A stretch of 37,402 bases of DNA from Gammaproteobacteria bacterium (GTDB taxonomy: Bacteria; Pseudomonadota; Gammaproteobacteria; UBA9214), in NCBI GenBank assembly GCA_033791305.1, contig JASJGW010000124.1, positions 1 to 37,402 on the forward strand, written 5' to 3'. Shown in pieces: positions 6,688 to 15,768 of this stretch (positions are counted from its first letter, which is position 1; each line of letters opens with the position of its first letter). Under the pieces are notes generated by a model. That model saw nothing but the letters and a program-made list of their open reading frames with translations, was not told the DNA's origin and ran no database searches. The translations under genes and the position numbers were made by a program.

Positions 6688-7143
6688 ATGGGATCATATA
6701 TGCCGGGTGGCGTGGATCGCCGCAAAAAGTCACATGAAAAACTTGAGGCACTCGTTACATCACGAACTACAACATTGTCATTATTGACAGAGCTCGCTGG
6801 CCGGCGGCCATTTACACCTGATCCTTCTATGGAGAAAGCACTGCGCGAGTTTTGTGAGGCCTTGATCGATTATACAGCCAGTGCCCATTTCCAATTGTAC
6901 CGCTACCTGGCCGACAATCGAGAGCGGCGGACCTCGGTATTGAGCATCGCTGACGGGCTTTATCCGAAGATCGTGGAAACAACAGACCAGATTCTGCGTT
7001 TTAATGATAAATACGAGACCATGTCACTGGGCAACAGCGTTGAATTTCTGGCAGTTGACCTGTCCAACCTGGCTGAATGTATTGCTGAACGTATTCAGTG
7101 TGAGGATGAGGTGATTTCAGCTATGGGTAGTGGTGTTCACTAG
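6688..7143 (+). CDS. rsd: Rsd/AlgQ-family anti-sigma-70 regulator
   Basis: FCEALIDYTASAHFQLYRYL matches E. coli Rsd FCQSLVDYLSAGHFSIYERI. The size (151 aa) fits, and an AGGAG lies 6 nt before the ATG. Confidence 0.75.
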   Translation: MGSYMPGGVDRRKKSHEKLEALVTSRTTTLSLLTELAGRRPFTPDPSMEKALREFCEALIDYTASAHFQLYRYLADNRERRTSVLSIADGLYPKIVETTDQILRFNDKYETMSLGNSVEFLAVDLSNLAECIAERIQCEDEVISAMGSGVH

Positions 7144-7341: not shown

Positions 7342-8175
7342 ATGGCAGATGACCACACCGTACCGGCAACGATTGAAGATTTACTGGAAATTATGGCGCA
7401 GCTCCGTAAGCCCGAGACAGGCTGTCCGTGGGACCTGCAGCAGGATTTCCGCTCCATCGCGCCATATACACTGGAAGAGGCCTATGAAGTCGTTGATGCT
7501 ATCGAGCAGGGGGAGGAGCGCGCCCTTAAAGAGGAATTGGGTGACTTGTTGTTCCAGGTTGTCTATCACGCGCAAATGGCACATGAAGCGGGCTGGTTTG
7601 ACTTTAATGCGGTGATAGCCGGGATCTGCGAGAAGATGGTGCGCCGTCATCCGCACGTGTTTGGTGATGACGTCATCAAGACCGCTGCAGCGCAGACACG
7701 AGCATGGGAGTTACACAAGGAAAGGGAGAGGGGGCGGCAGGGGAGTGTTCTTGATAGTGTGCCTCTGGCATTGCCTGCATTGACGCGTGCCGCCAAGTTG
7801 CAGAAAAGAGCATCGCGCGTTGGTTTCGACTGGCCGAGCATTCACGGGGTGTCTGACAAAGTCGAAGAGGAGCTGGAAGAATTGTGTGAGGAAATACAAA
7901 GTAATGCGGGTGCTGATGCCCTGATGGATGAAGCCGGCGACCTGCTGTTTGCTGTGGTAAATATGGTGAGGCATGCCGGGATAGATCCTGAGGCAGCATT
8001 ACGCCAGGGTAACCGGAAATTTTCCCGCCGCTTCCGGATGGTTGAAAAGCTCACTGAGGCGGCGGGAATGACGGTTGCAGAAACTGATCTTGATACGCTG
8101 GATTGTTACTGGGACCAGGTAAAGGAACTGGAAGTGACCGACCATCAATCCGGCAACGCGGCAGATACTTCATGA
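7342..8175 (+). CDS. mazG: Nucleoside triphosphate pyrophosphohydrolase MazG
   Basis: LLEIMAQLRKPETGCPWDLQQDFRSIAPYTLEEAYEVVDAIE and a second EELxE repeat show a tandem MazG domain organisation. The ATG at 7342 is preferred over 7300. Confidence 0.9.
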   Translation: MADDHTVPATIEDLLEIMAQLRKPETGCPWDLQQDFRSIAPYTLEEAYEVVDAIEQGEERALKEELGDLLFQVVYHAQMAHEAGWFDFNAVIAGICEKMVRRHPHVFGDDVIKTAAAQTRAWELHKERERGRQGSVLDSVPLALPALTRAAKLQKRASRVGFDWPSIHGVSDKVEEELEELCEEIQSNAGADALMDEAGDLLFAVVNMVRHAGIDPEAALRQGNRKFSRRFRMVEKLTEAAGMTVAETDLDTLDCYWDQVKELEVTDHQSGNAADTS

Positions 8176-8271
8176 GTCCGGGGGCTGCCCGGTCTTTTTC
8201 TTGTGTGTTGTCAGGTATTCAGGTACAAATAAAATCCTGTTGCAGGCAGTTTTAAACCAGAGACAGTTATC

Positions 8272-9090
8272 ATGACCACAACTGAGCCAGAAAATATAAT
8301 CGAGGTAGAAAACCTGGTCGCACATTATGGTGAACGCGTGATCCTCAATGATATCAACCTGGGTATCCGGACAGGCGAAATCAGGGTCATCATGGGTGGC
8401 AGCGGCTCGGGTAAAACCACCTTAATGCGGAATTTGCTGGGTCTGAACACCCCCAGTTCTGGCAGTATACGCATCCTTGGTAAGGATATAACCAGAATCA
8501 GCAAGCGCGAGCTGTATGCAATCAGGCGAAAGATGGGCGTCGCTTTTCAGGGTGGAGCCCTGCTGGGTTCGATGTCTGTGGCCGAAAATATTGAATTGCC
8601 CCTCAGACAACACACCAAACTGGATGAGAGCACCATTCGCATCATGTCCCGCATGAAGCTTGAGGTTGTCAATCTCGCAGGTTTCGAGAATTTGATGCCA
8701 TCGGAATTGTCCGGTGGCATGCTGAAACGGGCCGCACTGGCGCGTTCTATTGTGATGGACCCGGAAATGCTGTTCTTTGATGAGCCCTCTGCCGGACTTG
8801 ATCCGGTTGTTTCCGCAGAGCTGGATGAGTTAATCCTGCGACTGAAAGATGCAATGAATGTCACCATTGTGGTGGTGACGCACGAGCTTGAAAGTGCCTT
8901 CAAGATTGCGGACAGGATTACCGTGCTGGGGCAGGGCAATGTGCTGATGACGGGGACGGTGGATGAAGTGCAACACAGTGATAATGAGGTGATTCAGGAC
9001 ATGCTGAATCGACGACCCAGAGATGAAATCGTCAACGCGGAAGAATACCTGGCGCGACTGACCGCAGACCGGGAACAGCAACGCATATAA
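8272..9090 (+). CDS. mlaF: MlaF-like ABC transporter ATP-binding protein
   Basis: It has Walker A GGSGSGKTT, signature LSGGMLKRAALARSIVMDPEMLFFDEPSAGLDP (compare E. coli MlaF LSGGMARRAALARAI...FDEP) and H-loop VVTHE. It converges on mlaC. Confidence 0.8.
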   Translation: MTTTEPENIIEVENLVAHYGERVILNDINLGIRTGEIRVIMGGSGSGKTTLMRNLLGLNTPSSGSIRILGKDITRISKRELYAIRRKMGVAFQGGALLGSMSVAENIELPLRQHTKLDESTIRIMSRMKLEVVNLAGFENLMPSELSGGMLKRAALARSIVMDPEMLFFDEPSAGLDPVVSAELDELILRLKDAMNVTIVVVTHELESAFKIADRITVLGQGNVLMTGTVDEVQHSDNEVIQDMLNRRPRDEIVNAEEYLARLTADREQQRI

Positions 9091-9153
9091 ATAAATACTG
9101 CTCTGCTGCGTTGCTACCCGGGCTTTCCGACGCCACCCCCGGGTTCCCTGCGC

Positions 9154-9756
9154 TTACGTGGGCTGGCTTTCAAGCTCCTTGACCTTGACCTTCATTTTGC
9201 TGATCAGGCCATCAATACCATCTTTGCTTACAATGTTCTGATAGGAACTGCGATAGTTACTGATCAGGCTGATGCCTTCAATAATCACATCGTAGACCCA
9301 CCATTCACCGTTTTTCTTCTGGTAGACCTTGTAGTTAATCGGGATATCGGCACTGGCGGTGAGTATCAGGGTCTCGACAACGGCCTTCTTTCCCTTGACC
9401 TTTTCTCCCGGATAATCCACTTTTTCATCGGTGTAAGCTTCCACACGGCCAATGTAGGTGTTCTCGATCAGTTGGGCAAACAGCTGGACAAATTCCTGCT
9501 TCTGTTCACTGGATGCCTTTTTCCAGTTGGTGGCCAGGGTGCGTTGTGACATGGCGCGGAAGTCGAAGCGAGCATTAATGATCTTCCGCATTTCTATGCG
9601 CCGGGTAGCCTGGTCCAGTCCCTTGTTCTGGAGAAGGGTGAGAATGCTATCGACGGAGCCACGAATGGAATCCGTCGGTGACATCTCTGCAGACGCAAAG
9701 GTTGCCGCTACCAGGGTGATGCCGACGGTCAGTATCAGGAGCAGTCGTTTCAACAT
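9154..9756 (-). CDS. mlaC: MlaC/Ttg2D periplasmic phospholipid-binding protein
   Basis: It has the signal peptide MLKRLLLILTVGITLVAATFASA, then the toluene-tolerance Ttg2D pattern (RFDFRAMSQRTLATNWKK...QKQEFVQLF...YDVIIEGISLISNYRSSY). Confidence 0.85.
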   Translation of the reverse strand: MLKRLLLILTVGITLVAATFASAEMSPTDSIRGSVDSILTLLQNKGLDQATRRIEMRKIINARFDFRAMSQRTLATNWKKASSEQKQEFVQLFAQLIENTYIGRVEAYTDEKVDYPGEKVKGKKAVVETLILTASADIPINYKVYQKKNGEWWVYDVIIEGISLISNYRSSYQNIVSKDGIDGLISKMKVKVKELESQPT

Positions 9757-9794
9757 AACAAATACCTCGTAATGAATGATGTTCAACAGGTTCT

Positions 9795-10625
9795 CTAGTT
9801 TTCCACCTTGTTTTGGCGGTACTGGGTCCAAGCATCCCGGATGAACAGGTAAGGATCAAGGGCATCTCTCTTGATGCCCTCGTAGGTATCCTTGTCGAGC
9901 GCGACCTGGTTGACCGTTTCCAGGATGATTGCGGCCCAGTAATCCCGGTCTTCCCACAGGTAATAGATCAGGTCCATACGAGAGTCGGCCAACAGGCCAA
10001 TCCCGTCCCTGACGCTGGATGGCCCGAAGAAGGGTAACACCAGGTAGGGTCCCGGACCGATGCCGTAATACCCGAGTGTCTGACCGGTATCCTCTTCCTT
10101 CTTTTTGAGGTTGAAGTGGTCCTTGGCCGTGTCAAAGAAACCGCCGATTCCGAGTGTGGTGTTGACGCCAAACCGGGTCAACTCGTTACCGGCATCCGCA
10201 AATTTTCCTTGCAGGCCGGCATTAATCATCCTCATAGGGGTAGTCAGGTTCGAAAAGAAGTTGCCAATACCCAGCATCAGGGGCTCCGGCATGATCCAGC
10301 GGTACCCCTTTGCAACCGGCTTTAACAGGTAGAAATAGAGTTTATCGTTGAACCAGAACGTGCCCCGGTTAATTATCTCGAGTGGATCATAGACATCGAG
10401 TTCTTCATCCTCATCATCCAGCCAGGGCTGATCTTCATCCTCAAGGTCGTCGAGTTCTACAAATGTTTTCTCATCGCTGCTATCAGCCTCGTCTGCTGCT
10501 GCCAGGATAAGCGCAGGATTGGTGCTCTCATGTTCAGTGGTGGTTGCAGACGTGAGTATCGCGTTCGCGTTGACTCCTAAAGCGGGGAGTGCCAGTGCCA
10601 TAACCAGTAGAAGTAACTTTTTCAT
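9795..10625 (-). CDS. mlaA: MlaA/VacJ-family protein (no lipobox Cys)
   Basis: DPLEIINRGTFWFNDKLY...GNFFSNLTTP...TTLGIGGFFD...LGYYGIGPGPYLVLPFFGPSSVRD aligns with E. coli MlaA (DPLEGFNRTMYNFN...GMGGFIDVA...GPYVQLPFYG). Confidence 0.85.
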   Translation of the reverse strand: MKKLLLLVMALALPALGVNANAILTSATTTEHESTNPALILAAADEADSSDEKTFVELDDLEDEDQPWLDDEDEELDVYDPLEIINRGTFWFNDKLYFYLLKPVAKGYRWIMPEPLMLGIGNFFSNLTTPMRMINAGLQGKFADAGNELTRFGVNTTLGIGGFFDTAKDHFNLKKKEEDTGQTLGYYGIGPGPYLVLPFFGPSSVRDGIGLLADSRMDLIYYLWEDRDYWAAIILETVNQVALDKDTYEGIKRDALDPYLFIRDAWTQYRQNKVEN

Positions 10626-10646
10626 GATGTATTTTGCGGTGTTGTA

Positions 10647-11093
10647 CTATTCGGTTTCAAAGATGTATTTGCTGACCAGTTCTTCCAGACTGATCGATGA
10701 TTCTGTTTCTTCGATCTCATCACCTGCTGCAAGAAAAATATCCGATCCGCCCGGTGTGAGCTTGATGAATTTATCGCCGATGATTCCCGAAGTGCGGATA
10801 GATGCAATACTGTCATCTGTCAGTTCCACTGTTTTCTCGATATTCAGGTGTACCACGGCTTCATATTCTCCGGCGTCCAGTTCAATCTTGCTTACCTTGC
10901 CGACAACAACGCCCGCCAGTTCGATCGTTGTCCCTTCCTTCAGGCCGCTAATCGAGGTAAACCGGGCGGTAACCGGGTAGGTCTCATTTGCGAAGGGATC
11001 TATATCACCCATCTTGACGGCCAGCCAGGAGAAGCTGATAAAACCCGCCAGCAGGAATATTCCGACGATGAGTTCTAGACTTGTTTTTTTCAT
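10647..11093 (-). CDS. mlaD: MlaD (MCE-domain) protein
   Basis: It has the N-terminal TM anchor LIVGIFLLAGFISFSWLAV, then the MCE-domain pattern YPVTARFTSISGLKEGTTIELAGVVVGKV...GIIGDKFIKL. Confidence 0.85.
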   Translation of the reverse strand: MKKTSLELIVGIFLLAGFISFSWLAVKMGDIDPFANETYPVTARFTSISGLKEGTTIELAGVVVGKVSKIELDAGEYEAVVHLNIEKTVELTDDSIASIRTSGIIGDKFIKLTPGGSDIFLAAGDEIEETESSISLEELVSKYIFETE

Positions 11094-11132
11094 GGCTTGC
11101 TCCGTTTGCTGCTTGTGTGCCGTGACGTGTGC

Positions 11133-11924
11133 TTACGAAAGTATCAGTGAGCCTATCAGATAGTCCCAGACAAGAATGGTGACAGAGGCAAACACCACGG
11201 CATCAGTTGTGATGCGGCTGACACCTTCTGCACCGAATACGCCGGTCCGGCTGAGGTGAAGAAAGTATCCCTTGTAGGTGGTTATCCAGACAATCAGCAG
11301 ACCAAAGATGAGTGATTTGATCAGGCAGAGACGAATATCAGCCCATTCCACACTGTTATACATCCCCTGAAAATAGGATCCTTCTGAAACACCCAGTAAT
11401 ACGACCCCCGCCAGATAACCGCCAAATATTCCAACCACATTGAACATAAATGCCAGCACTGGCAGGGAAATCAGGGCGGCGACAAACTTGGGTGCAACCA
11501 GAAACTTCAGGGGATCGATTGCCATGCACTCAAGGGCATCAATCTGTTCGGAATGACGCATGATGCCGATTTCGGCACAAATGGCCGAACCCGCACGACC
11601 GATGACCATCAATGCGGTCAGTACCGGTCCCAGTTCCTGTATCAGACTGAGGGCCACCGCAGAACCAAGCAGTTCCTCGGAGCCGAATTGTTTCAGGTTA
11701 TGGTAGCCCTGCAGGCCAAGCACCATGCCGGTAAACAGACCAACGATAAGAATTACGGTAACCGAGCGGGCTCCGAAGAAATAGATCTGCCTGACAACAG
11801 GATAAACCGAGTAGGGTGGTTTGAATATGCAGGCGATGGTATCGCCAAAAAATATGCCCATCCTGCCCGTGGTTTCCAGCAGATATAAAAAATCTCTTCC
11901 GAGTTTGCTGAGCAGGTTTATCAT
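11133..11924 (-). CDS. mlaE: MlaE ABC transporter permease
   Basis: The 263-aa polytopic protein has QIYFFGARSVTVI, LKQFGSEELLG, ELGPVLTALMVIGRAGSAICAEIGIMRHSEQIDALECMAIDP, characteristic of the MlaE family. Confidence 0.9.
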   Translation of the reverse strand: MINLLSKLGRDFLYLLETTGRMGIFFGDTIACIFKPPYSVYPVVRQIYFFGARSVTVILIVGLFTGMVLGLQGYHNLKQFGSEELLGSAVALSLIQELGPVLTALMVIGRAGSAICAEIGIMRHSEQIDALECMAIDPLKFLVAPKFVAALISLPVLAFMFNVVGIFGGYLAGVVLLGVSEGSYFQGMYNSVEWADIRLCLIKSLIFGLLIVWITTYKGYFLHLSRTGVFGAEGVSRITTDAVVFASVTILVWDYLIGSLILS

Positions 11925-12006
11925 GATTGCAGGATTCTGTGGATGGCTGCGGTGAATGCAGGGGGCTGTTGTGGTCGCTTCTGTCTGGCATTAACCTTGA
12001 TAAGGG

Positions 12007-12333
12007 TTATGAATTCAGTCCTTCATCCACCGAGTTGTACAGGGTGAATACCTTGTCGAGACGCGCCAGTTCAAGGACACGTCGGGTAGGCTCGCTGACT
12101 GCGGCCAGGCCAAACTGGCTGCCGTTTTTCTTTGCTGCCTGTAGTGCTTCAACGAGCGAGGCAACGCCGGAACTGTCAATATAGGTGACCTCTGAAAGGT
12201 CAACGATTACCTTGCTGGTGGATTCGAAGCATTTAAGCAGGATTTCCCTTGCGACCGGTGAGCTTTCCAGGTCAACCTCGCCCGTGAAGGCAACAACGGA
12301 GGCACCTTGCCTTTCCGAAATTTCATGTTTCAT
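12007..12333 (-). CDS. STAS-domain anti-sigma-factor antagonist (RsbV/SpoIIAA/HsbA-like), in the MlaB position
   Basis: The 108-aa protein has VVAFTGEVDLESSPVAREIL, and VTYIDSSGVASLVEAL contains the DSSG phospho-serine motif of SpoIIAA-type STAS proteins. Its ATG lies 1 nt after the stop of the upstream gene. Confidence 0.85.
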   Translation of the reverse strand: MKHEISERQGASVVAFTGEVDLESSPVAREILLKCFESTSKVIVDLSEVTYIDSSGVASLVEALQAAKKNGSQFGLAAVSEPTRRVLELARLDKVFTLYNSVDEGLNS

Positions 12334-12334
12334 T

Positions 12335-14092
12335 TCAATTGGTTCTCCCGATAAATTTAACCATGCGTAACAGATTCCCCTTGCCGGAGTGTACCGGGAG
12401 GTACTCGACCTCGTCCATAATGTCGTGGATAAGGCAGATGCCCAAACCGCCGGGCCCCAGCTCTTCTGGCCATTTCGGTTTCATTTTCTTCGGGTCGACC
12501 GGGGGCGCTGAATCCTGCAAATCAAACTGGATTATGCCGTCTTTACAGACTATTTCCAATGTCGCCTCGCCATCTTCGGTACCTTTATAGGCATGTCGGA
12601 CCACATTCTGGCAGGCTTCTCCAACGGCAATAACAATATCCGTGGCCAGTGACCGGGTGCAGCCGCAGTCTTCGCAGGCCTTGCTGACTATTTCACGTAC
12701 TGCCTGTAATTCATCTGCGCGTGCAGGAAATGTGTGCCGGACGATCATGGTGGCCTGATTATGCCGTATATCTTCTTTTAAACAAGGGTTCGTGGCGTCA
12801 ATGGCAATCAGGGTAATATCGTCGTGACGCTTGCCCTCAGTATTGCCCAGGACAGAGATGATGGCTGCAATGCGCTCAGCAACCGGGACATCGATGCGTT
12901 CCCGGATGATTTTTTTGAATCCATCAATTCCCAGCCGACTGCCATCTTTCAGATCACCCTCGGTGACGCCATCCGTAAATATATACAGGGTGCCACCATC
13001 CAGGTTGAATATTTCTTTCCGGATGCCGCCATTTCCGGCAACCAGCGGCAGGATCCCCAATGGGGGGGCGCTGGCAGAGATGGGTGTAAATGATCCGTCC
13101 TGTGCGTGCAGCAAGGGAGGTTCATGTCCGGCATTGGCCAATTGCACTTCACCTGTTGCCGGATCAAGCAGGCCGCAGGCCATGGTGACAAACATGCCGT
13201 GGATGGCCGTTTCACACAGTTCTCTGTTTATGGTTGCCAGCAATACATTAGGTTCGTGCAAGGTCTTGCCAAGACAGCGAAACAGGCTGGATGTCTTGGA
13301 CATCAGCAAGGCAGCGTCCATGCCTTTCCCTGAAACATCACCAAGACTGAAGTAAATACGTCCGTCATTCAGGTCAAAAAAGTCGTAAAAGTCACCGGAC
13401 ATTTCATGGGCAGGCAGGTAAATGCCGCAGACAGGGAAGGGTGCGGGCCGGCGAGCAGGCAGCAGGCTGCGCTGCATTTCTGTGGCAAGTTCCAGTTCCC
13501 GACTGAACCGCTCCTGTTCGACCAGATCCTCGGCCATATGTGCATTGTGGATGGCCAGCGCAGCTGCCGAGGCCAGTGTTTGCAGCATCAGCAGGTCTGT
13601 ATCGGAAAACAGGCCGCTGGTATCGAGCTTGTTGACCAGTTCAATGGCACCGATTTTTCGCGTATGCACTGTCATGGGGGTGCACAGGATAGAACGGGTT
13701 TGAAAACCGGTGAAATCATCGACAGAATGATCAAAGTTCGGATCCTGTTGTACATCCCTGACAATGCGACTGCTGTTTTCGGAGACGCACTGACCGACGA
13801 TACCTTCACCGGCCTGCAGGGATATTCCACGTATGTCTACCGGGCCGGCGCTGGCCTTGCAAACCAGCGAGCCGTCCTCGTCGTTCAGCAAAAACAGGGC
13901 GCCGCCCTCTGCCTTGACGAACTGCACAATCAGATCGAGTGCTTTCTGGATGGTTACTTCGATGTTGAGCGTGACGGCCAGATGGCTGCTCATTTTTGAC
14001 AGTAATTCAAGGTGGCCGGAAACGTTGGCCGATTTTCGGCGATCGATGCGTTTGGGATCCCGGCGGTCCATGTCTGGAGGAGTGTTGCTCAT
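12335..14092 (-). CDS. GAF - PP2C/SpoIIE phosphatase - RsbW-like HATPase three-domain fusion protein
   Basis: There is an N-terminal GAF-like region. The PP2C motifs are SGDFYDF, GDVSGKGMDAAL, FTDGVTEG and HDDITLIAID. The C-terminal anti-sigma/Ser-kinase module has GEACQNVVRHAY and GPGGLGICLIHDIMDEVEY. Confidence 0.85.
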   Translation of the reverse strand: MSNTPPDMDRRDPKRIDRRKSANVSGHLELLSKMSSHLAVTLNIEVTIQKALDLIVQFVKAEGGALFLLNDEDGSLVCKASAGPVDIRGISLQAGEGIVGQCVSENSSRIVRDVQQDPNFDHSVDDFTGFQTRSILCTPMTVHTRKIGAIELVNKLDTSGLFSDTDLLMLQTLASAAALAIHNAHMAEDLVEQERFSRELELATEMQRSLLPARRPAPFPVCGIYLPAHEMSGDFYDFFDLNDGRIYFSLGDVSGKGMDAALLMSKTSSLFRCLGKTLHEPNVLLATINRELCETAIHGMFVTMACGLLDPATGEVQLANAGHEPPLLHAQDGSFTPISASAPPLGILPLVAGNGGIRKEIFNLDGGTLYIFTDGVTEGDLKDGSRLGIDGFKKIIRERIDVPVAERIAAIISVLGNTEGKRHDDITLIAIDATNPCLKEDIRHNQATMIVRHTFPARADELQAVREIVSKACEDCGCTRSLATDIVIAVGEACQNVVRHAYKGTEDGEATLEIVCKDGIIQFDLQDSAPPVDPKKMKPKWPEELGPGGLGICLIHDIMDEVEYLPVHSGKGNLLRMVKFIGRTN

Positions 14093-14196
14093 CTACGTCC
14101 AGTGTCCTGTTGGCTTCATGCCCTTGCCGGGGATGGCATCAATAATGGACGCCGTCATGTGGACATTGTCTGTACTGGTCTGAGTCTGTTGTTAAA

Positions 14197-14273
<77 letters not shown>

Positions 14274-14274
14274 T

Positions 14275-15276
14275 TTAACAGTTGCGACTAACAGAAAATT
14301 CTGCGAGGCCGTACAACGCGTCCTTGTAGACTGATTCCGGTAGTGGATTCAGTGCCTCGATGGCGAGATCCGCTTCCCGCTGTGCGGCCTGTGCAGTGTA
14401 CGGGATGCCCCCGGTTGATTCAATAATCGCACACACTACCTGCATGTTATCATGTCCACCGTTTTCGATTGCCTTGCGTATCAGTTTTGCCTGGCTTGGC
14501 GTGCCCTTGTGAATGGCGTGGATGAGAGGCAGGGTTGGCTTGCCTTCGGCAAGGTCATCTCCAACATTCTTGCCGGTGTCTTCGGGGGAAGCACTGTAGT
14601 CAAGCACGTCATCAATTAACTGGAATGCAATACCCAGATGCAGGCCGTAATTGGCTAAAGCAATTTCGATCTGTTCAGGTTGCCTGCTGAGAACGGCGCC
14701 AATCTGGGCGGCCGCTTCAAACAGGCGTGCGGTCTTGCGGCTGACGACATCCATGTAACGGTCTTCGGTCGTCTCGGCATCGTGGCAGTTAAGCAACTGC
14801 AGTACTTCACCTTCTGCAATGGTATTCGTGGTGTGGGACATGATCTCCATGATGCGCATGTCATTGGCTGCGACCATCATCTCGAATGAGCGTGAATACA
14901 GAAAATCACCGACCAGTATGCTGGCTTCATTTCCCCACAGGGCATTGGCGGTCATATTGCCGCGTCGCAACTGGGAGGCATCCACGACGTCAGCATGGAG
15001 CAGGGTCGCGGTATGGATAAATTCGATCACGGCAGCCAGGGTGATGTGCTGAGTACCCTTGCAGGAACAGGCATTAGCCGCCAGCAATACCAGCATCGGG
15101 CGTAGCCGTTTGCCGCCACTACTAATAATATAGTTTGACAGCTGGTTAATGAGGGCGACATCACTGTGCAGTGAGCTGTGTATCAGCGCATTGACTGCTT
15201 CCATATCATCCGAGAGCAATTGCCGGACCGAATCAATATATGGCGCATCAGTATAGGTTTTAACGAGTTTTAGCAT
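14275..15276 (-). CDS. ispB: Octaprenyl-diphosphate synthase IspB (first Asp-rich motif reads ADVVD)
   Basis: [25 protein letters not shown]...[14 protein letters not shown]...[11 protein letters not shown]...[20 protein letters not shown] is collinear with E. coli IspB. The start at M22 (15276) is chosen by alignment to the E. coli N-terminus. Confidence 0.9.
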
Positions 15277-15379
15277 ATTTACGTGATTCTTCAAGCAGCT
15301 TACCGCAGCCCGGGATAGTCCTGGCTGACACTCTGGCAAGTTTAACGGGGTTATCTACCTTGTGCCAGAAGGGATTTGA

Positions 15380-15408
15380 TTGACCTGACCGGATGCAAAC
15401 ATTATTAT
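15380..15408 (+). promoter_or_regulatory. Candidate sigma-70 promoter of rplU-rpmA
   Basis: TTGACC, a 17-nt spacer, then TATTAT lie about 50 nt upstream of the rplU ATG. Confidence 0.45.
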
Positions 15409-15456
15409 AGGCGGCCTTTTTCGACAATGAAGTTTGATGTATTTGGAGTTTTTGAC

Positions 15457-15768
15457 ATGTATGCGGTTATAAAGACGGGCGGAAAGCAGTATCGTGTCAC
15501 CCAGGGAGACACCTTGCGGGTTGAGACACTGGATGCCAGTGAAGGCGATGCAGTCGAATTCGACCAGATTCTGATGGTTGGTGATGGGGAAGACGTCAAG
15601 ATTGGTGCGCCATTGGTTGATGGTGGCAAGGTGACTGCCACGGTCAAGGGACATGGCCGCGCCAAAAAGGTCGAGATCATCAAGTTCCGCCGGCGCAAGC
15701 ATCACATGAAACGGATGGGACATCGCCAGAACTATACTGAAGTTGAAATTACCGGGATTTCAGGCTAA
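15457..15768 (+). CDS. rplU: 50S ribosomal protein L21
   Basis: [23 protein letters not shown]... is the canonical L21 N-terminus. A GGAG lies 8 nt upstream. The ORF-track start at 15376 is too long. Confidence 0.95.

Follow-up and report, generated by a model that had tools for sequence, protein, structure and literature searches.

A phospho-switchable STAS protein probably wired to an Mla/MCE lipid transporter under cyclic-nucleotide control

What might a predicted phosphatase-kinase control when its gene is followed by those of a lipid transporter? The question is raised by a 585-residue open reading frame (ORF) in a 37,402-nucleotide stretch of a gammaproteobacterial genome (contig JASJGW010000124.1; the whole stretch is called the window below). 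The gene of a small STAS protein lies directly downstream, and genes of an Mla/MCE transporter follow. The preliminary description of this DNA presented the ORF as a special partner-switching hub of the HsbR/CrsR type, with a GAF domain in place of the receiver and a degenerate G1 box in its kinase; the more interesting feature of the locus, its coupling to the transporter, was missed. The enzyme is read here, with confidence somewhat above even, as a cyclic-nucleotide-controlled phospho-switch that would act on the MlaB-like STAS subunit of the adjacent lipid transporter, the transporter being the putative output. The enzyme, its domains and the STAS protein occupy the following positions.

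12335–14092, minus strand: gene of the GAF-PP2C-RsbW-like kinase, 585 residues (ORF with three Pfam domains)
13547–13969, minus strand: GAF domain (GAF_2), residues 42–182 (Pfam E = 9e-18)
13463–13603, minus strand: long helix linking GAF to PP2C, residues 164–210 (DSSP on the AlphaFold2 model)
12797–13366, minus strand: SpoIIE/PP2C phosphatase domain, residues 243–432 (Pfam E = 5.7e-40)
12746–12748, minus strand: Met449 codon where phosphatase and kinase are joined; in split relatives, the separate kinase gene starts with it (junction comparison)
12356–12730, minus strand: RsbW/SpoIIAB-type HATPase_c_2 serine kinase domain, residues 455–579 (Pfam E = 9.4e-28)
12494–12514, minus strand: G1-box variant D527-S-A-P-P-V-D533 (D527 in 96 of 96 kinase domains; position 529 Ala in 85, Gly in 9)
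12007–12333, minus strand: STAS protein of 108 residues (Pfam STAS, 2e-21)
12172–12174, minus strand: putative phospho-site Ser54 of the STAS protein, in DSSG (residues 53–56)

The ORF at 12335–14092 is real and lies on the minus strand, which had not been stated before; the plus-strand frame translated across the same interval contains many stops. The GAF, SpoIIE and HATPase_c_2 domains proposed in the preliminary description were all recovered by Pfam profile hidden Markov models with scores well over the gathering score, supporting a phosphatase and a kinase on a single chain with a GAF input. As in HsbR and CrsR, Pfam places the PP2C domain and a C-terminal GHKL kinase on one chain, whereas no Response_reg domain was detected by Pfam in the 585-residue enzyme, which has GAF at its N-terminus instead. 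Every peptide quoted earlier is found where it is expected, among them SGDFYDF at residue 232, GDVSGKG at 251, FTDGVTEG at 372 and HDDITL at 423 in the phosphatase, and GEACQNVVRHAY at 491, QDSAPPVD at 526 and GPGGLGICLI at 546 in the kinase. The PP2C metal-ligand residues D234, D237, D252, G255, D374, G375, D424 and D425 are invariant in an alignment of 27 homologs, and they include the complete set of metal-binding aspartates of an RsbU-type PPM phosphatase (D234, D237, D252, D374, D424 and D425).

An AlphaFold2 model built on the 27 homologs is of modest overall quality (predicted local distance difference test 70.6, predicted template modelling score 0.47), with the single domains folded. 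Its best fold match is the RsbU+RsbW fragment of Rv1364c from Mycobacterium tuberculosis (3ke6, E = 5.8e-17); the PP2C domain of Pseudomonas aeruginosa RssB is a further match, and Bacillus subtilis RsbW (6m37) is matched with a template modelling (TM) score of 0.86. The helix of residues 164–210 is the counterpart of the coiled-coil linker known from RsbU-type PPM phosphatases (PMC12143880). More than 2000 homologs of the enzyme were found, and the top ~110 (62–90% identity) all have the identical three-domain architecture; a pattern scan matched at least 587 genome loci.

The start codon of the STAS gene lies 1 nucleotide past the stop codon of the enzyme gene. The STAS protein scores 79.8 bits against the anti-sigma factor antagonist model TIGR00377, over the cut-off. 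It carries a phosphorylatable serine in the DS(S/T)G motif typical of RsbV, and [IL]DSSG is kept in 30 of 30 orthologs. The predicted substrate of the enzyme is this STAS protein encoded alongside it.

In the window, the enzyme, STAS, mlaE, mlaD, mlaA and mlaC genes follow one another on the minus strand, with tRNA-Pro and ispB upstream of the enzyme gene. An ATPase gene, mlaF', is convergent with the operon.

11133–11924, minus strand: mlaE-type permease (Pfam MlaE, 3.9e-75; TIGR00056 over the cut-off)
10647–11093, minus strand: mlaD, an MCE protein (Pfam MlaD; TIGR04430 162.9 bits, cut-off 135)
9795–10625, minus strand: mlaA (Pfam MlaA, 1.6e-69)
9154–9831, minus strand: mlaC, start codon uncertain (Pfam MlaC, 2.7e-46)
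8272–9090, plus strand: mlaF' ABC ATPase, convergent with the operon (ABC_tran)
14197–14273, minus strand, as the enzyme gene: tRNA-Pro(CGG), between ispB and the enzyme gene

The association with a transporter recurs in Gammaproteobacteria, in Betaproteobacteria (Azonexus, Dechloromonas and Propionivibrio) and in Alphaproteobacteria (Dongia and Rhodospirillales). The recurring order is enzyme (with or without a separate kinase gene), STAS, MlaE-like permease, MlaF-like ATPase, an MCE protein of ~330 residues and a PqiC-like lipoprotein. Neighbours were counted over 105 non-redundant loci from the three classes, each time among the loci with enough downstream sequence. STAS lies downstream in 89 of 98 loci, STAS and MlaE in 73 of 86, and a PqiC-like lipoprotein in 47 of 65. 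The clustering of STAS with both mlaE and mlaF, which is characteristic of MlaB, is found in the window and in 68 of 78 related loci. The lineage of the window is rearranged: MlaD, MlaA and MlaC stand in for the long MCE protein and PqiC, and the conserved MlaF' is inverted. From cluster to cluster, the enzyme varies in its sensor and in its fusion state; STAS and the transporter stay.

MlaF' forms a subfamily of its own, with 58–84% identity among its carriers and ~40% to canonical MlaF. The copy in the window is 60–84% identical to the module-adjacent MlaF of other genomes and ~40% identical to the canonical MlaF of its own genome. Among 400 sampled gammaproteobacterial genomes, 75 have MlaF', and 72 of these 75 also match the enzyme, compared with 25 of the ~326 genomes without MlaF', in a comparison made by hand from tables that score few hits per genome.

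Two characterized transporters suggest how the STAS protein may act. In the E. coli MlaFEDB complex, as in the window, a small STAS protein is encoded with MlaE and MlaF. MlaB touches MlaF with the face that carries T52, the equivalent of the phospho-site; MlaF function depends on this face, and the substitution T52E weakens binding (PMC7367683). In E. coli there is neither a kinase nor a phosphatase for MlaB, whereas the STAS protein of the window is SpoIIAA-like, has a DSSG that does not vary and is a putative binder of MlaF'. The Mpc (chimeric Mla-Pqi) system of Brucella abortus consists of an MlaE-like permease, an MlaF-like ATPase, an MCE protein of ~330 residues and a PqiC-like lipoprotein, which is the common form of the cluster (PMC12436622). 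Its permease MpcE is a STAS-MlaE fusion with STAS N-terminal to the permease (PMC12436622). It differs from the window in that STAS and permease form one protein, with no kinase or phosphatase reported, and in that the window has MlaD, MlaA and MlaC in place of the ~330-residue MCE protein and PqiC. Because the gene order is conserved, STAS is fused to the permease in Brucella Mpc and MlaB contacts MlaF through T52 in E. coli, the STAS protein may be the regulatory subunit that gates the transporter. A literature search, with subscription journals outside its scope, found no papers tying MlaB or MCE systems to RsbU, RsbW or PP2C proteins.

The GAF domain most resembles cyclic-nucleotide-binding GAF domains (PDE2, PDE5, PDE10, CyaB and Lcd1) in sequence and predicted fold. 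Its best sequence match among solved structures is the GAF domain of Lcd1 with cyclic AMP (cAMP) (5w10, 4e-18), followed by GAF domains of PDE5, PDE2, PDE10 and CyaB2. The cAMP-bound GAF domain of Leptospira Lcd1 (5w10) is also matched by the fold of the AlphaFold2 model, with a TM score of 0.8. Residues F120, D125, G129-F130, T132, S134, N154-K155 and D166 are invariant in the 27 homologs. The motif NKFDE is the signature of cyclic-nucleotide-binding GAF domains. Of this signature, N154, K155, an aromatic residue at position 162 and D166 are present, and the position of the final glutamate is occupied by Leu167. The direct small-molecule control anticipated in the preliminary description is plausible since the GAF domain is closest to those that bind cyclic nucleotides.

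A possible source of the ligand is found beside some of the loci. A gene of 750 codons for a CHASE2-class III cyclase follows the transporter genes in 14 of the 65 loci with enough flank (L032:14145-16391, L039:14015-16294 and 12 others; 57–64% identity between families). These loci belong to one gammaproteobacterial subclade, in which nth-DUF1841 lies upstream. The cyclase carries Lys in IDKYMGD and Thr in YTVLGDAVN, specificity residues of the adenylate cyclase type. Seven domains of class III cyclases are encoded in the genome of the window; three CHASE2 homologs on other contigs are among them. Because the GAF domain matches those that bind cyclic nucleotides, CHASE2 cyclases adjoin the module in a subclade and seven cyclase domains are present in the genome, cAMP is the leading candidate for the GAF ligand, and the CHASE2 cyclase is a candidate for its source.

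Taken together, the following mechanism is proposed. The C-terminal RsbW-type domain would work as a serine kinase, phosphorylating Ser54 of the STAS protein, and the PP2C domain would strip the phosphate off. The GAF domain would bind a cyclic nucleotide, most likely cAMP from CHASE2-type adenylate cyclases, and this signal, passed along the long helical linker, would turn the phosphatase on. Unphosphorylated STAS would act like MlaB, binding the dedicated MlaF' ATPase of the Mla/MCE transporter and licensing transport, whereas phospho-STAS would be unable to bind MlaF'. The output would be the transporter, not a sigma factor, and the joining of phosphatase and kinase in one chain would be an evolutionarily labile convenience with no separate mechanism. 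The generalization to several hundred proteobacterial genomes is an evenly balanced proposition: in these, an MCE/Mla transporter would be gated post-translationally by a cAMP-sensing GAF (or HDOD) phosphatase and an RsbW-type kinase, which toggle an MlaB-like STAS protein able to bind the ATPase only when unphosphorylated.

Several points weigh against this proposal. The enzymatic activities, the ligand, the STAS-MlaF' interaction and the direction of the switch, like all functions in the family, are predictions from sequence and model. The CHASE2 cyclase is adjacent in one subclade and not in the window, and the sequence is compatible with cAMP, cyclic GMP or another ligand, a choice that it cannot decide. 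The STAS protein is in sequence a classical antagonist of the SpoIIAA/RsbV type: its best match in the Protein Data Bank (PDB) is TM1442 (1.7e-16), with MlaB reaching only 5e-4, and it scores 28.4 bits against the MlaB equivalog model NF033618 (mlaB_1), below the cut-off of 90. No STAS-MlaE fusion was present among the best 150 STAS relatives from 1.8 billion representative proteins, of which the multi-domain matches were scanned with Pfam, so that Brucella provides the sole case for a Rosetta-stone argument; the search speaks neither for nor against an MlaB-like role of the STAS protein. A clade of Marinicella has the fused gene with neither STAS nor Mla genes nearby, and the hand-made nature of the MlaF' comparison also belongs on this side.

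The enzyme could instead belong to a classical sigma factor partner switch of the HsbR/CrsR type. In that case RpoS or another sigma factor would be held by the kinase domain, doubling as an anti-sigma factor, until dephosphorylated STAS displaces it, and the Mla neighbourhood would reflect co-expression only. This alternative is unlikely, but it draws on real similarities. RsbW and SpoIIAB, to which the kinase domain is homologous, are anti-sigma factors, and the STAS protein is closest to anti-sigma factor antagonists. The D3 (RsbW-type) domains of HsbR and CrsR bind RpoS, which makes a sigma output encoded elsewhere possible and is thus a further point against the transporter as output (PMC6482189). 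However, no sigma factor gene was found in the Pfam-annotated clusters, where the neighbours are Mla/MCE genes; the other loci were probed with transporter queries and not searched systematically for sigma factors. Against this alternative also stand the order STAS-MlaE-MlaF, which three classes of Proteobacteria share despite differing sensors and fusion states, and an MlaF subfamily of its own that is found almost only together with the module.

The proposed switch also depends on the kinase domain being active. The preliminary description called the G1 box degenerate and asked whether the domain may be only a binder. In such a pseudo-kinase, which lacks the glycine of G1, the domain would do no more than bind, and STAS would be phosphorylated by another kinase or never. 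That G1 lacks DxGxG holds literally, as the box reads D527-S-A-P-P-V-D533, and the ATP lid is 5–6 residues shorter in the Mla-linked kinases than in other PP2C-kinase fusions. However, the variant is conserved and not decayed in a survey of 96 distinct kinase domains of the family, fused and split, that are 30–100% identical. The adenine-binding D527 and the general-base E492 of the N-box are kept in all 96, and the Mg-binding N496 of the N-box and G548 and G551 of G2 (GGLG) in 95 each. Position 529 is Ala in 85 domains, and Gly stands in its place in nine. The N-box, G1 and G2 of the GHKL serine kinase of an RsbU/RsbW/RsbV module are all present, the G1 glycine being mostly alanine.

Comparison with other kinases points in the same direction. 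The C-terminus is nearest to the RsbW and SpoIIAB models in NCBIfam, and its sequence matches in the PDB are RsbW (3.9e-11) and SpoIIAB (3e-7). The second glycine of G1 is already optional in solved RsbW-type kinases, which read DEGVG in SpoIIAB and DEGDS in B. subtilis RsbW. Other PP2C-kinase fusions of the same bacterial class have the G1 sequence D-x-G-x-x-F-D-P, and one unrelated fusion (L132) has DSA. No HATPase_c_2 match in the genome of the window other than the enzyme has the size of RsbW; the six other matches lie in frames of 443–661 residues and are presumably histidine kinases. The joint conservation of the STAS phospho-serine and of a PP2C domain with intact metal ligands would be hard to explain without a cognate kinase. 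An orphan fused copy in genome G305 (L004:1501-3270), which has no STAS or Mla neighbours, serves as a natural control that shows, at the level of motifs, how loss of kinase function looks: its N-box is EAYQS (Asn to Ser), its G2 is NDDESE with GGLG lost, and its GAF and PP2C motifs are intact. Motifs thus do decay in a copy without STAS. With the N-box, the G1 aspartate and G2 intact, and a second glycine that RsbW-type kinases do not need, a pseudo-kinase is quite improbable. D-x-A is most likely a conserved family variant of G1, and the kinase domain is most likely active, because the kinase motifs, the STAS DSSG serine and the PP2C metal ligands are all conserved. The narrower question posed earlier is thereby corrected: among RsbW-type kinases, D-x-A is a form of G1 that looks functional.

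The single chain itself is one of two states in which the module occurs. In the closest relative on a long contig (L001, 88% identity), the kinase is a separate protein of 137 residues, and its ATG overlaps the stop codon of the phosphatase gene. Across the junction, the sequence of the window is CAGGCCACCATGATC, in frame, whereas L001 reads CAGTCC-CCATGATC, which gives a TGA stop over the ATG; the two are one 1-nucleotide indel apart. Of the 126 loci examined, 74 carry the fused gene and 46 the separate genes. A tree built from 98 GAF-PP2C sequences requires no fewer than 16 changes of state, of which well-supported branches force at least 11. Some of the changes may be sequencing errors in metagenome-assembled genomes (MAGs), yet whole clades share each state. 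It is very improbable that the fusion in the window is merely an assembly or frameshift artefact hiding separate genes as in L001: the two states do differ by one nucleotide and the genome is a fragmented MAG (2.57 Mb, 381 contigs, 87% completeness), but the artefact is rejected because 74 loci are fused, in many independent assemblies that include the isolates Dongia mobilis, D. deserti and Marinicella spp., and L047 and L048, the fused relatives nearest to the window, lie on either side of it in the tree.

The sensor is exchangeable as well. A sister family has HDOD for GAF ahead of PP2C and occurs both split (569 residues and a kinase of 145 residues) and fused (729 residues); in its loci L127:2899-8616 and L131:4131-6320, genes for STAS, MlaE, MlaF, MCE and PqiC-like proteins follow as in the GAF family. 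Other PP2C-kinase fusions of the class have PAS or dCache/PDC-HAMP sensors. GAF-PPM phosphatases (RsbZ and OsaC) and a PAS-PPM-RsbW-STAS protein (Rv1364c) were known earlier (PMC12143880). The special HsbR/CrsR-like hub with a swapped receiver is not upheld by these comparisons. Judged from the sequences, the single chain is a three-gene module in a labile variant of its gene structure, not a class of its own, because the state changed at least 16 times on the tree and the junctions differ by 1 nucleotide; the replacement of the receiver by GAF is likewise ordinary sensor modularity.

The enzyme shares parts of its design with several partner-switching systems. In HsbR-HsbA of P. aeruginosa and CrsR-CrsA of Shewanella oneidensis, PP2C is followed by an RsbW-type kinase/anti-sigma domain on one chain, the cognate STAS substrate is encoded alongside and the signal lies in the phosphorylation state of STAS (PMC6482189). 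On the input side they have a receiver that an Hpt phosphorelay feeds, in contrast to the GAF domain of the enzyme; their outputs are RpoS, FlgM and HsbD, whereas the conserved neighbour of the enzyme is an Mla/MCE transporter with no sigma factor linked; and in the family of the enzyme the fusion is facultative. Rv1364c of M. tuberculosis (3ke6) is also a fusion of a non-receiver sensor, PPM and RsbW, but it has a PAS sensor, carries STAS on the same chain and is linked to SigF regulation, not to a transporter. In RsbZ of Clostridioides difficile and OsaC of Streptomyces coelicolor, GAF domains control a PPM phosphatase via a helical linker in partner switching, as proposed for the enzyme (PMC12143880). 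RsbZ has no fused kinase and OsaC has another domain order, and both feed sigma-B-type factors, unlike the enzyme. SypE of Vibrio fischeri combines an RsbW-like kinase and PP2C in one protein that controls the STAS protein SypA with a non-sigma output (PMC10120452); it differs in its kinase-receiver-phosphatase order, its receiver input and its output, biofilm polysaccharide.

The regulation of Mla/MCE lipid transporters is an open question. Phosphoregulation of MlaB was termed such by the authors of the MlaFB structure, who raised STAS phosphorylation as a possibility (PMC7367683); it was left hypothetical because E. coli has no candidate kinase. The family described here places STAS, kinase, phosphatase and sensor in one operon with the transporter. 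The STAS protein is probably phospho-switchable and wired to the transporter under cyclic-nucleotide control. If this is true, it is the natural phosphoregulated counterpart of MlaB that was only hypothesized in the structural work on E. coli, and it would link periplasm-sensing CHASE2 adenylate cyclases to the control of envelope lipid transport, extend partner switching from transcription to the direct control of an ABC transporter and add a new target for bacterial cAMP. The fusion of phosphatase and kinase, in turn, is to be seen as a labile trait. The idea is directly testable because the family is present in cultured Dongia, Azonexus and Marinicella.

The genome of the window contains a second, canonical operon, mlaF-mlaE-mlaD-mlaB (99 residues)-ibaG-murA, on contig C246 (11876-14528), without mlaC. 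Because the canonical mlaFED-mlaB operon is separate, the transporter of the window is a paralogous system, and each MlaF paralog has its own STAS protein. Among the regions examined, without a genome-wide search for either gene, mlaC and mlaA were seen only in the cluster of the window, and the two transporters may share MlaC and MlaA. The listed mlaC ORF, which starts with TTG at 9831, shares 37 nucleotides (9795–9831) with the end of mlaA. The true start is probably further downstream, since alignments with relatives begin at about residue 15–38. The position of tRNA-Pro implies that the operon promoter must sit in the ~100 nucleotides past the tRNA or upstream of it; promoter and terminator scans of 8000–15500 gave nothing over shuffled background. 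The nearby rsd gene (6688–7143) was considered as a link to sigma-70 and rejected because it is not in the conserved cluster in other genomes.

In Marinicella gelatinilytica (L114:6155-8668) and six related loci, the fused gene follows a gene for a CDP-alcohol phosphatidyltransferase with a 3-nucleotide gap. This neighbour is a gene of phospholipid synthesis, not of lipid transport. The multi-domain relatives that did appear in the STAS search have kinase-STAS, tandem-STAS, TLC/MFS-STAS and WecG-STAS architectures. P0135, P0173 and P0227 (46–52% identity to the STAS protein) and the WecG protein P0206 (30%) are fused to an RsbW-like kinase, to transporters of the TLC/MFS type and to the WecG glycosyltransferase. 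Direct joining of SpoIIAA-like STAS domains to transporters is not rare, as close relatives of the STAS protein occur in such fusions. Ahead of the GAF domain, residues 1–26 of the enzyme (14014–14092) form a conserved basic tail, PPGGDRRDPxRxDRRK, which is disordered in the model and in which R10, R11, D17, R18 and R19 are invariant among the 27 homologs (at least 62% identity).

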